DNA of 64,000 bases from a virus (IMGVR_UViG_3300037067_016777:32001-96000); one strand, 5' to 3'. Positions 2,329 through 53,591 are shown, numbered from the stretch's first letter. The notes: generated from the sequence alone by a model not told the origin. Numbers and translations are program-made.

Positions 2329-4380
2329 ATGAAAATCTCAGAGCTCCGTAGTGCGATCGATAGAGCTTCGCAGCTCTATTACACTCTTGGCACGATCTCA
2401 TCAACCTCAGATACCGAGTATGATGTGTTGATGGACGAGTTGAGGCGATTAGATCCATCAGATCCTCGACTAACTAGAATCGGTCCCCCATATTCTGCTG
2501 CTGATTTCGCTGCCAAGAAACAACACCTAATCCCAATGGGGTCTCTCGATAATACTGATGGTGGTATTAGTGGATTTGCTAGTTGGTACGACAAGACTTG
2601 TGCTCTGCTCGGTGTCGAGAGTTTCACGATCAACGCTTCCTTGAAGATGGATGGCAACAGTGTTGCGTTAAATTATGAAAAAGGTATGCTTAAGGAAGCG
2701 ATCAGCCGTGGAAACGGTACCGAAGGTTTGGATATCACAGCAAATGCCGTAAAGTGGATGGGCGTTCCGACCTGCTTGCCAGTCACATTCACTGGTACGG
2801 TCCGTGGCGAGGCGATTCTCTACAAGGCCGAATTTGACGCGATGAAGGAGAGCGACCCGACACTCACCAACCCCAGGAATGTGGGTAGCGGTATTCTCGG
2901 TCGAACTGATGGCACACAGAATGAACTGATTCGTTTTGTCGCTTTCAACATCGTCGATCCGAAGACGGGTTTCTCCTCTTTGAGCACCAAATTCAAGGTT
3001 CTTGAGAGGCTCGGTTTCAGTCCAGTACCACATATCGTCATCAGTGGTGATCATCGCCAAGCCATCATCAAATCGTTTGAAGACAATTTCGCTGAGACGG
3101 AAGCGCAACGCCCGATGTTGCCTTTCGAGATCGATGGCGTCGTGGTGATGGTCGATGACGTTCCAGCACAGAAATCGATCACGAAGGACCGAAAGGATGA
3201 GCTACGACCGAAGTATGGTCGGGCTGTGAAGTTCGTCACCGCCAAAGCACAAACGACAGTGACCGGCGTCACCATCACCATGGGCCATACCGGCTCTATC
3301 ATCCCAACGGCGATTCTTGAGCCGGTCTTCGTCGGCGGCGTCACTGTCACCAACGTCCTGCTCAACAACTGGAACGCGGATAGCGAAGCTCCATCAGCCG
3401 CTCATGTCGCAATCGGCGACACTGTTGAGATTGCCAGGCAAGGCGACGTCATCCCGAAGATTGTCCGCGTCATCGATCGTCCATCCGATCGCCAGCCGAT
3501 TGAAGAGCCGAAAGTATGCCCCGTCTGTGGCTCGCCGACAACAAGGACATTGCGAGACAAAGAAGGCGTCGTCACCTACTGCACGAACGCTGACTGCGGC
3601 GGTGCATCGGTCAGCAAGATCAAGCACTACATCGGAAACTCCGACAAGGGTGCTGGTATCATGGGCGTCGGCGATAGTGTTCTCGAAGCACTCACGAGCA
3701 ACGGACTTGTCACAACACCCGGCGACCTTTACCGGCTCAAAGCTGAGCAGTTGATTGATTTGCAGATCGGCACGAGCAAGAGCGGTACGCCAATCCGGCT
3801 CGGCAACACCAGAACAAACAACCTTCTCGCCGAAATCGAGAAGTCCAAGCAACTTCCGCTCACTAAGTTCCTTGGCGCTCTCGGCATTTCGCTGCTCGGT
3901 CGGCGTCGTGTCGAAATCGTCGCCCAGGAGCAAGGACTGACGACGCTTGAGGATTGGTTGAATGAAGAGAAACTCGCCACGATTCCCGGTGACGTGATAC
4001 GGAAGACGATTATCGATGGGCTGCAAAAGGTGCGGCCCGTCATCGACGATCTGCTTGCCGTTGGCATCGTTGTTTCGCCTGTTGTTCCTATCGAAATCCT
4101 GGAGACTACAACCGTCGCAACGGCCGATGACGGCGTGATTGGTCCCAAGCAGATCGCTGGCAGCACGTTCTGTTGGACTGGCTGCCGCGATTTTATCGAT
4201 GAGGTTGTTGCGAGGGGTGGTGTCGTGAAGAGCGGTGTGAGCAAAGGACTCCATTATTTGGTGCAGAAAGATGCTACGTCATCGTCTGGTAAGACCTTGA
4301 AGGCCGAAAGCTACGGCACGAAAATCATCAGCATCGACTGTCTGCGTGAAGTCCTTGACGGTCTTCGAGAGCTGCCATAG
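2329..4380 (+). CDS. ligA: NAD-dependent DNA ligase
   Basis: SDTEYD, KMDG adenylation motif, NPRN, EIDGVVV, GDVIPKI, C4 zinc finger, C-terminal BRCT (SGVSKGLHYLV); start assumed at ATG 2329. Confidence 0.95.
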   Translation: MKISELRSAIDRASQLYYTLGTISSTSDTEYDVLMDELRRLDPSDPRLTRIGPPYSAADFAAKKQHLIPMGSLDNTDGGISGFASWYDKTCALLGVESFTINASLKMDGNSVALNYEKGMLKEAISRGNGTEGLDITANAVKWMGVPTCLPVTFTGTVRGEAILYKAEFDAMKESDPTLTNPRNVGSGILGRTDGTQNELIRFVAFNIVDPKTGFSSLSTKFKVLERLGFSPVPHIVISGDHRQAIIKSFEDNFAETEAQRPMLPFEIDGVVVMVDDVPAQKSITKDRKDELRPKYGRAVKFVTAKAQTTVTGVTITMGHTGSIIPTAILEPVFVGGVTVTNVLLNNWNADSEAPSAAHVAIGDTVEIARQGDVIPKIVRVIDRPSDRQPIEEPKVCPVCGSPTTRTLRDKEGVVTYCTNADCGGASVSKIKHYIGNSDKGAGIMGVGDSVLEALTSNGLVTTPGDLYRLKAEQLIDLQIGTSKSGTPIRLGNTRTNNLLAEIEKSKQLPLTKFLGALGISLLGRRRVEIVAQEQGLTTLEDWLNEEKLATIPGDVIRKTIIDGLQKVRPVIDDLLAVGIVVSPVVPIEILETTTVATADDGVIGPKQIAGSTFCWTGCRDFIDEVVARGGVVKSGVSKGLHYLVQKDATSSSGKTLKAESYGTKIISIDCLREVLDGLRELP

Positions 4381-5494: not shown

Positions 5495-5967
5495 TGCGAG
5501 TGCACCATACATGCGACACGATGAATTGCGATGTTCGCGACGTGAATGATGCGGCCAAGTTTACCAAGCTTCGGGTCCGCAACGACGCTCAGATCGGTAT
5601 CGGCATTTGGATTGATGGGTACTCAACCCATACAGCCACTGATGATGACCCCGATGCCGTTTTCTACCTCGAAGTCCAGGATGGTAAGCCTGTCCTGCGG
5701 GTATGGGCCGACATCAATTCTGAAGAGCCGACCCATACCATTGACCTGTCGGGTGCCCATATCAATTGTCGTCTGTCGATCTTCAAGGGCAACCTTTACT
5801 ACTACGGTGACGACCACGAGGTCAAGCATCACCTTGCTAGTTTCGAGGAGCAGGCCGTAAATGCCACCCTCCTGGAGCGGAAGGTCCTCGACAAGTATTG
5901 GGATGATCGGCTCGACGCGGCTAGCTGCTCGCCCCATTTCGAATACGAGGTAGTTGTTGATGAGTGA
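5494..5967 (+). CDS. hypothetical protein
   Basis: TGATG coupling to the upstream gene; exact start uncertain. Confidence 0.6.
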   Translation: MRVHHTCDTMNCDVRDVNDAAKFTKLRVRNDAQIGIGIWIDGYSTHTATDDDPDAVFYLEVQDGKPVLRVWADINSEEPTHTIDLSGAHINCRLSIFKGNLYYYGDDHEVKHHLASFEEQAVNATLLERKVLDKYWDDRLDAASCSPHFEYEVVVDE

Positions 5968-52262: not shown

Positions 52263-52625
52263 TTAGTCGCTTCTACCAAAGCCATTTCTAGCCGAACCAG
52301 CTGCCTTTGCGCATAATATATTGGGATCTGGGATAGGCAATGGATGGTTTTCAGCACATTTTACACAATATCGTGTGTCTGGCAATAGTTCTAAGCGTTC
52401 AATCGGAATTATTGTCCCACAATCATCACACAGCTTGCTTGGTTTCCGAGTTGAATAACTGACAGAAATTGTTCGAGACCAATAGAATTCCTTACCGCAC
52501 CTACCACATTCATCTTGGCTATCTTCTTCGCCACCACCACCATATTCATAACTCTCGCTATGAACATACCCGCAATGCGGACACACTATTTCTTTGGTAT
52601 ATTCACAATCAATCTTTTCAGCCAT
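52263..52625 (-). CDS. zinc-ribbon plus DksA/TraR C4-type zinc-finger protein
   Basis: CDDCGTIIPIERLELLPDTRYCVKC; N-terminal CPHC...CGRC. Confidence 0.75.
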   Translation of the reverse strand: MAEKIDCEYTKEIVCPHCGYVHSESYEYGGGGEEDSQDECGRCGKEFYWSRTISVSYSTRKPSKLCDDCGTIIPIERLELLPDTRYCVKCAENHPLPIPDPNILCAKAAGSARNGFGRSD

Positions 52626-53295: not shown

Positions 53296-53591
53296 TAGAC
53301 CCGGCAGGACTCGAACCTGCGAACCAAGAAATTATGCATACCACTTCGTTTTTCAACGCCTCTTTCGAGTTCGTGGTCTGGACCATACCTTCACTTTACG
53401 TGTCTGCCGTCTGGTCTCTACACCTTCTGCTAAGCAGCTTGGCTCGGTATTAGCATTGCAGCCTTCACCGAATTTGACAGATTCTACCACAACCCTCATA
53501 AGAAAGCTGTAGCAACCCAATAGGATAATCATGCTTGCGTTTAGATTATCCTGCAAAAGTTTCCTGCTCTAACCAACTGAGCTACGGGTCC
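53296..53591 (-). tRNA. intron-containing tRNA(CAU), most likely Ile2
   Basis: exons 53558-53591 and 53296-53336 join to give a GGAAA-CTCATAA-TTTCT arm; GGACCCG acceptor, A73. Confidence 0.88.
53337..53557 (-). ncRNA. group I self-splicing intron (221 nt, no ORF)
   Basis: 5' exon ends in U, intron ends in G; P AAATTCGGTGAA, Q AATACCGAGC, R GTAGAGACCAG, S AAGGTATGGTCC; P3 TCTGTC/GGCAGA; P7 GACCA/TGGTC. Confidence 0.9.

Follow-up and report, generated by a model that had tools for sequence, protein, structure and literature searches.

A group I intron is reportedly present in the tRNA-fMet gene of cyanobacteria, in work attributed to Biniszkiewicz et al. 1994 and Paquin et al. 1997. For introns of this kind in bacterial tRNA genes, four classical types are recognized (Leu.3Ug, Arg.5Ug, fMet.2Ug and Ile2.5Ug), to which 17 new ones have been added (Williams 2020, bioRxiv 10.1101/2020.01.27.920355). 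The seed alignment of that study, drawn from bacterial genomes only, includes Ile2.2Ug (seed Gba28.Ile2.2Ug) and Met.2Ug, and its fMet.2Ug bears out the statement of the original prediction for the locus described here that a cyanobacterial tRNA-fMet intron occupies the same site. In phages, group I introns have been found in protein genes, such as td, nrdB and nrdD of T4 and genes of Twort, SPO1 and the Bastillevirinae (PMC3984707, PMC11878797). According to the review of Hausner et al. (2014), all phage introns seen so far lay in protein genes, much as the original prediction had stated, and interruption of a phage tRNA gene had yet to be described; Devoto et al. (2019, PMC6784885) described introns in phage tRNAs as previously unreported, noting 'enigmatic' ones in the tRNAs of Lak megaphages. 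These two papers mark a gap in print, and our full-text literature search turned up no paper that describes a phage tRNA gene split by a group I intron.

The stretch analysed here (the window) is 64,000 nucleotides long and comes from the record of an uncultured jumbo phage (IMGVR_UViG_3300037067_016777:32001-96000). We are confident that it carries a working phage CAU tRNA gene, most likely of tRNA-Ile2, which is split between U33 and C34 by an ORF-less IC3 intron, most simply a passenger that was probably captured together with a Planctomycetota-type gene. The original prediction had called a group I intron at position 33/34 of a phage tRNA-Ile2, and this call is right, with the Ile2 isotype deduced as set out below. 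The novelty it attached to the site was overstated, since this combination of site and isotype is already catalogued in bacteria as Ile2.2Ug and is widespread there. The predicted features of the locus, in window coordinates, are these:

53591-53296, minus strand: the pre-tRNA, 296 nt.
53558-53591, minus strand: 5' exon of the tRNA(CAU), 34 nt, with the 5' strand of the acceptor stem, the D arm, the 5' strand of the anticodon stem (GGAAA), C32 and U33.
53337-53557, minus strand: group I (IC3-type) intron, 221 nt, from the RF00028 match, covariation and fold; it has no ORF of its own and closes with the omega G at 53337.
53522-53552, minus strand: P1-extension hairpin, made of a 9-bp stem, an internal loop (UAAA/CAU), a C-G pair and a GCAA tetraloop.
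53552-53544 and 53530-53522, minus strand: the two sides of the P1-extension stem, AGGAUAAUC/GAUUAUCCU, 9 bp.
53514-53518, minus strand: internal guide sequence GGGUU, forming P1 with exon A30 A31 C32 U33 and intron U1 (53561-53557).
53489-53510, minus strand: P2 hairpin, ACAGCUUUC-UUAU-GAGGGUUGU, from the Rfam alignment, structure and fold; relatives differ in the length of this hairpin, which is poorly aligned by MAFFT.
53427-53481, minus strand: 5' strand of P3 (UCUGUC), P4, P5, P6 and P6a, with 97-100% of cells paired and double changes in P3, P4, P5 and P6a.
53378-53416, minus strand: 5' strand of P7 (GACCA), 3' strand of P3 (GGCAGA), P8 (CAC-GUAAA-GUG), J8/7 and 3' strand of P7 (UGGUC); P7, the guanosine-binding helix, is 100% paired.
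53337-53376, minus strand: P9 three-way junction, in which CCAC/GUGG closes CUC-GAAA-GAG and CGUU-GAAA-AACG, followed by UAUG; 95-99% paired, with many double changes.
53296-53336, minus strand: 3' exon, 41 nt, with C34 A35 U36 (CAU), A37 A38, the stem strand UUUCU, the variable loop, a canonical T arm, the 3' strand of the acceptor stem and A73.

Every element listed in the original prediction for a 221-nt group I intron with a terminal G between U33 and C34 is present on the minus strand. The intron starts with UUUGC and ends with UAUG, the 3' exon starts with CAUAA, and CCA is absent from the encoded 3' end of the tRNA. When the exons are joined (a check proposed along with the prediction), ARAGORN accepts the product as a 75-nt cloverleaf with anticodon CAU, and the predicted junction reads ...GGAAACU followed directly by CAUAAUUUC... 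We also joined the exons at every offset, asking for a U before the 5' site, an intron-terminal G and a 7-nt anticodon loop; the sole offset that passes on all three counts leaves a first exon of 34 nt and removes 221 nt, giving CAU. The joined exons agree at 68 of 75 positions with an uninterrupted planctomycete tRNA(CAU), which is colinear with them across the junction, and the 5' exon agrees in 31 nt with the tRNA(CAU) of Aeromonas phage pAEv1810, which is likewise uninterrupted. Homologues were gathered by pattern scans from viral contigs and from at least 120 loci of species-representative genomes, nearly all of which, among the loci listed, are CAU tRNAs split after U33. We aligned 43 CAU-tRNA introns of identical insertion site and laid the structure of the window intron on the alignment: CAUAA, C32, U33 and the intron-terminal G before CAUAA are invariant. 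At the level of sequence, colinearity with intron-less genes shows where the splice junction lies.

Standard annotation gives a different picture of the site. Default ARAGORN makes no call there, Rfam at gathering thresholds finds no match there, and ARAGORN -i returns tRNA-Lys(ttt) i(38,221), that is, anticodon UUU with the intron at 37/38. Taken literally, this would be a tRNA-Lys(UUU) whose 221-nt intron sits at the archaeal/eukaryotic position and is removed by proteins. The call arises because a 3-nt slide (ACU/UUU/GCA ... AUG/CAU/AAU) permits both joins on paper; however, the intron would then end in U instead of G and the group I core would be ignored, no slide gives a tRNA in the family of one viral homologue (L008) and in 40 other genes, the uninterrupted homologues read CUCAUAA, and the tRNA body is of the CAU type. 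The comparative data refute the Lys(UUU) reading, to which we give practically no chance, and the CAU tRNA split after U33 is retained. We also noted a 67-aa ORF with a TTG start (53353-53556, minus strand), lying wholly within the intron and overlapping the ribozyme core; given the many indels among relatives in this region, we regard it as probably no gene.

The core of the ribozyme is found by covariance search as well as by comparison. With permissive thresholds, Rfam RF00028 (Intron_gpI) aligns over its full length to 53514-53357 with 35.4 bits, the cmscan alignment spanning model positions 1-253. The E-value is 2.7e-7 locally and 2.5e-8 over the 269-kb genome record, in which this is the only Intron_gpI match, so that the Infernal-type check suggested with the prediction gave a clear hit below the cut-off: the gathering threshold of RF00028 is 50, and a default Rfam scan missed the intron for this reason. 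Williams (2020) points out that bacterial introns are absent from the Rfam group I seed, which operates at 18-20 bits. The conserved catalytic core P3-P4-P6-P7-P8 with the P/Q/R/S elements is present, every core helix of the window intron is fully paired, and across the 43 homologues P3, P4, P5, P6a, P7, P8, P9 and both P9 hairpins are 95-100% paired. In this alignment, standard pairs fill 89.7% of the cells, as against 30-43% when the partners are slid by 1-3 columns; 39 of the 65 pairs show changes on both sides, and the observed covariation score was reached by none of 500 shuffles. Folding of the pre-tRNA (z = -3.25) reproduced the acceptor stem, the P1 extension, P2, P4/P5, P6a, P8 and the P9 hairpins. 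Judged by its sequence and predicted structure, the presence of a complete, compact IC3-type group I ribozyme is confirmed beyond chance.

The P7 helix of this core, GACCA/UGGUC, had been singled out in the original prediction as a compensatory departure from the usual sequence. The compensation is real, as P7 switches from U-A (36 sequences) to C-G (7) and from A-U (39) to G-C (4) in the alignment. The peculiarity was overstated: GACCA/UGGUC occurs in 7 of the 43 sequences, namely the window intron and the six nearest Planctomycetota introns aligned, and on this evidence is a lineage mark of the Planctomycetota clade and no oddity.

P1 was likewise found as predicted, with AACU (plus the first intron U) pairing to GGGUU, a U33·G pair at the splice site and an extra 9-bp hairpin. 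U33·G marks the 5' splice site in all 43 homologues and C32-G is kept in 41, while the pair at position 31 alternates between G-C (28) and A-U (13), following the change in the anticodon stem. P10 is weak, with only 1-2 bp by inspection. In a relative from landfill (X3, ~90% identical), both sides of the P1-extension stem differ in a compensating way at 53552/53522 and at 53545/53529, and insertions at 53550/53523 are paired; this supports continuing selection on the stem, and the hairpin is, from the sequences compared, a shared feature of the family. Its tip carries the motif CUAAAC...GCAYG in the window intron, in Planctomycetota relatives (L139, L129, L169 and L175) and in the L008 and L097 viruses, and CUAAG...UAUG or UACG in relatives from CPR, Chloroflexota and Acidobacteriota. 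We take the latter to be the classical 11-nt GAAA-tetraloop receptor sequence. The window motif, CUAAAC...GCAUG, resembles that receptor and may be a candidate variant of it. Two further introns (L155 and L182) also carry a tip motif of one of these receptor-like kinds in the P1 extension.

A receptor at this place would be of interest for the tertiary structure. In the Azoarcus intron, the L2 tetraloop is said to contact P8, and this contact, usual in IC3 introns, is missing here because L2 is UUAU, which is not a GNRA loop, and P8 has only 3 bp. We infer from the sequence motifs that a GAAA loop of P9 would dock on the receptor-like tip of the P1 extension, replacing the L2-P8 contact of other IC3 introns.

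The same departures could be read as signs of decay, the intron being a relic that no longer splices and the tRNA a pseudogene. No other member of its clade is as short (221 nt as against 242-291 nt), it lacks the P5 extension, and its Rfam score under the cut-off would fit as well as its L2 and P8. Yet all 70 invariant alignment columns are intact, the core helices pair fully, the exons give a clean cloverleaf and the compensating changes in the P1 extension of a close relative point to ongoing selection, while a length of about 200 nt is normal for the class (205 nt in Azoarcus). We therefore consider decay quite improbable and treat the gene as working.

Which tRNA is interrupted is a separate question. 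Bacterial host tRNAs of this intron family are of two kinds: initiators (CGCGGGG..., with a GGG/CCC anticodon stem), as in Nostoc, which represent the classical fMet.2Ug, and tRNAs like E. coli Ile2 (TAGCTCAG..GGTTAGAGCAG, with a UUGGU variable region), to which the window tRNA belongs. An initiator identity was rejected, as the window tRNA has G1·U72 and the anticodon stem GGAAA/UUUCU and shows neither a 1:72 mismatch nor three G-C pairs at 29-31:39-41. It has the Ile2-type GAGCAG-G27...U43 together with the UUGGU variable region, where both elongator Met references differ (GAGCAC..., GGGGUC/GGUGUC). C4-G69 and C5-G68, which are determinants for TilS, are present as in E. coli tRNA-Ile2. The window tRNA is 75% identical to E. 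coli Ile2, 73% to E. coli Met (metT) and 77% to the elongator Met of a Planctomycetaceae genome (G001), 80-85% to the planctomycete split genes and 91% to the uninterrupted one.

The Planctomycetaceae genome carries a related split gene (L129) and gave 57 Rfam tRNA matches. It has a separate initiator tRNA-Met and a separate elongator tRNA-Met and encodes TilS (184 bits), so that its split CAU tRNA is, by elimination, Ile2. In the same genome, about a dozen tRNA genes lie within 3 kb (G001:C1:3293545-3296410, L244), including a tRNA-Ile(UAU) and an aberrant 69-nt CAU tRNA, and this array may be mobile or part of a prophage. The Aeromonas phage tRNA that shares the 5' half has as its best E. 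coli match a gene annotated tRNA-Ile (PGAP). In the phage itself AUA is used 23 times per 1000 codons, and its other tRNAs, Leu-UAA, Arg-UCU and Thr-UGU, read the A-ending codons UUA, AGA and ACA. TilS (PF01171) was not found in the phage record, which is 74% complete, and the reading of AUA is for this reason expected to depend on a host enzyme.

The alternative, which leaves the reading of the intron unchanged, is an elongator tRNA-Met. Met.2Ug is listed beside Ile2.2Ug (Williams 2020), the identities to metT and to the planctomycete elongator Met are not far under those to Ile2-type genes, and the Met label is what ARAGORN always gives to a CAU tRNA. Set against this are the Ile2-type signature positions and the two C-G pairs of the acceptor stem, the closest relatives being the third CAU tRNA of planctomycete genomes that already have an elongator Met and TilS, and the frequency of AUA in a phage whose other tRNAs read A-ending codons. 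An elongator Met is, in our judgement, unlikely, and the sequence evidence makes Ile2 very probably the isotype. In the one viral contig inspected for this (L008, IMGVR_UViG_3300028569_002710), a tRNA-Ile(UAU) follows the split CAU tRNA after 2 nt; that phage could then decode AUA with two tRNAs, unless its CAU tRNA is Met.

As for the origin of the gene, the tRNA(CAU) genes of Planctomycetota provide the closest matches to the exons as well as to the intron. A maximum-likelihood tree built on 189 intron columns groups the window intron with the Planctomycetota Ile2-type introns, all eight of which fall in this clade (support 96/89); the nearest is from a Pirellulaceae genome (L139, 82%), and the other viral copies (L008/L010 and L097) are placed elsewhere. 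Because the intron clades mostly follow bacterial phyla, repeated pickup by phages of host tRNA genes with their resident introns is the simplest history, and this phage or an ancestor probably captured a Planctomycetota-type tRNA-Ile2 gene in this manner. From this one gene, Planctomycetota would be the candidate host phylum; the other phage tRNAs are 73-78% identical to their G001 cognates, which is uninformative on the host. In a DNA search of 401 Planctomycetota genomes, with the best two candidates per genome scored, the intron was recovered in G001 only, and since these introns diverge fast and two candidates were scored per genome, prevalence in the phylum cannot be read from this search.

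Closest relatives of bacterial origin could also mean that planctomycete DNA was misjoined to the viral contig or flanks it, as IMG/VR records can include host flanks and Terminase_6C (PF17289) was not found in the phage record (74% complete). The split gene, however, lies 85 kb inside the 269-kb record, adjoined by tRNA-Thr and tRNA-Arg in a group of small ORFs of like orientation, and a phage clamp loader (phrog_5846, 1.9e-43) is encoded 4.5 kb away. The GC content of 43% differs from that typical of planctomycetes, and contigs from two DNA runs of independent studies (X1, groundwater; X2, landfill) bridge both exon/flank junctions with no differences. A misjoin is highly improbable, and we regard the gene as the phage's own. 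No intron-less allele of the phage was seen in the sequencing runs, and megablast of the 20 kb around the site found no match among cultured phages. Outside the window, the phage genome has an ARAGORN tRNA-Gly with the anticodon ACC (G000:C1 202034-202105, plus strand), which is unusual in bacteria and phages.

The neighbours of the gene are a DksA/TraR zinc-finger protein, a metallophosphoesterase and small ORFs with no assignment. The first of these, a 120-aa protein with a C4 zinc finger (PF01258, 2.1e-10; window 52263-52625, minus strand), lies between tRNA-Thr and the split tRNA. The domain search found no homing endonuclease or nuclease gene in the intron or among these neighbours. This bears on the idea that the intron now serves the phage, whether by gating or delaying tRNA-Ile2, by hiding the anticodon loop from a host anticodon nuclease or by giving immunity to a homing endonuclease. 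Split tRNA genes do recur on many viral contigs, but no endonuclease gene accompanies the intron, the tRNA once mature would be no better shielded than other tRNAs, and like introns reside in bacterial tRNA genes of the ordinary kind, in keeping with a neutral passenger. We think a phage use decidedly unlikely, and the protection of the anticodon loop that the original prediction had offered is unsupported here.

With the intron taken as a passenger, the course of expression may be derived from the established chemistry of the family. The pre-tRNA would be transcribed together with the neighbouring minus-strand genes, and the guide GGGUU would pair with exon A30-U33 and the first intron U to form P1. 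A free guanosine bound in P7 (GACCA/UGGUC) would attack after U33; the intron-terminal G would then occupy the guanosine site, and U33 would attack the bond between this G and C34, yielding the 75-nt joined tRNA. Host enzymes would add CCA and lysidine, with host TilS turning C34 into lysidine so that tRNA-Ile2 reads AUA, and IleRS would charge the tRNA. The intron would be retained as a passenger, and we propose that it persists because self-splicing makes it nearly neutral. In none of six RNA runs did more than 10% of the sampled words occur. The run examined closely (X8) yielded only tRNA and intron fragments of other organisms, and in it no RNA read or contig skips exactly 221 nt, the apparent joints being tRNAs of other organisms; with only such conserved fragments, the RNA runs neither support nor oppose splicing.

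The window gene has counterparts on other viral contigs. Scanning IMG/VR with a 15-base core motif, and leaving in loci at provirus ends, we found at least 84 intron-split tRNA genes around the motif (84 of 118 loci among the matches listed). Among the matches listed, some 59 are Leu(UAA) split at U34/A35, CAU genes are split at 33/34 in four cases and at 36/37 in three, and the remaining loci belong to other types; some could be host genes at provirus ends. An overly loose pattern for viral contigs, GGGTTGCTAN{15,45}AATCTGTC, was discarded when 69 of its 77 loci proved to be chance matches. CAU.2Ug introns occur in at least three separate phage lineages, and group I introns are apparently common in phage tRNA genes, though unpublished.

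Several of the individual loci deserve mention. The published uncultured phage LR756501.1 (735,411 bp; L003), the record of which carries no annotation, has at 1430-1720 a tRNA-Leu(UAA) gene into which a 205-nt group I intron is inserted at U34/A35. One contig (L021, IMGVR_UViG_3300044546_001481) has a split CAU gene with a 201-nt intron and a split Leu-UAA gene with a 195-nt intron (108-385 and 3219-3497), about 3 kb apart. In its sister (L020, IMGVR_UViG_3300043435_001243, ~5560-5930), a Leu 5' exon, one intron and a CAU-type 3' exon are found in a row, either because the two intron copies recombined with loss of the intervening DNA or because the assembly collapsed. The cultured Pelagibacter phage HTVC120P (MH598807.1, 19433-20607; L001) has two 'capsid protein' CDSs (gp29 and gp30) separated by about 190 nt, a spacer that is 72% identical to the core of the window tRNA-type intron, and six viral contigs (L007, L011, L012, L018, L023 and L026) have a like intron within an apparent coding sequence. 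By sequence similarity, a tRNA-type IC3 intron appears to reside in phage head genes.

With these loci in mind, one may speculate that phage-borne split tRNAs are an unpublished route by which compact IC3 introns pass between bacterial phyla and into phage structural genes, the window gene being one of several captures. The three or more phage lineages with CAU.2Ug, the dozens of Leu.3Ug contigs, the pelagiphage capsid introns and the apparent recombination between two copies can be offered for such a route, which we hold to be possible though doubtful. The similar suggestion of the original prediction, that phages ferry tRNA introns between hosts, is compatible with the CAU.2Ug lineages and the capsid-gene introns; it is plausible and unproven.

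These findings have some practical consequences. Because default scans miss the gene and ARAGORN -i mislabels it as Lys(UUU), inventories of phage tRNAs and analyses of codon supply would under-count such genes. For an otherwise hostless jumbo phage, the gene points to Planctomycetota as a candidate host phylum. At 221 nt, the intron is also a very small natural candidate ribozyme with an unusual P1-extension module, and would be easy to test at the bench.

How, then, does this intron compare with those already described? The introns in protein genes of phages are mostly of subgroup IA. Like these, the window intron is a group I intron carried by a tailed phage, its self-splicing being a prediction; unlike them, it lies in a tRNA gene. 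It shares a phage-encoded tRNA with the introns of the Lak megaphages, for which no class was named (PMC6784885), whereas the window intron is of group I. The Azoarcus Ile2.5Ug intron, which is self-splicing and has ~205 nt, is likewise a compact IC3 intron with GAAA tetraloops in the anticodon loop, there of a tRNA-Ile(CAU), which is also the probable isotype here. Its site lies 3' of the anticodon (36/37; 5' exon of 39 nt), with P1 formed by CAU/GUG, whereas the window intron lies before the anticodon, at 33/34, and takes its P1 from A30-U33. A contact of the Azoarcus type between L2 and P8 is impossible in the window intron, which has a receptor-like motif in the P1 extension instead.

Nearer still is the cyanobacterial fMet.2Ug intron (seed Tpc1.fMet.2Ug), which has in common with the window intron the U33/C34 site of a CAU tRNA, the IC3 core, P3 (CUGUC/GGCAG) and a hairpin in the P1 loop, and our genome scan retrieved the cyanobacterial fMet and the window-type introns as one family. 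The cyanobacterial host tRNA is an initiator (C1xA72, GGG/CCC anticodon stem), unlike the window tRNA, and some cyanobacterial copies carry the gene of the endonuclease I-Ssp6803I, whereas the window intron has no ORF and no endonuclease ORF beside it that would mark a mobile intron. With Ile2.2Ug, the window intron shares a CAU tRNA, probably of the Ile2 type, insertion after loop position 2 (U33), the U at -1, the omega G and an IC3-like core. The seed Gba28 intron has another core sequence and no P1-extension hairpin, which the window intron has, and the Ile2.2Ug-like copies nearest to the window are those of Planctomycetota (L139, L129, L169 and L175). The catalogued introns are bacterial, whereas the present one is on a jumbo-phage record; what is new here is a phage-borne, Planctomycetota-type copy of 221 nt, and the mechanism is that of the known family.
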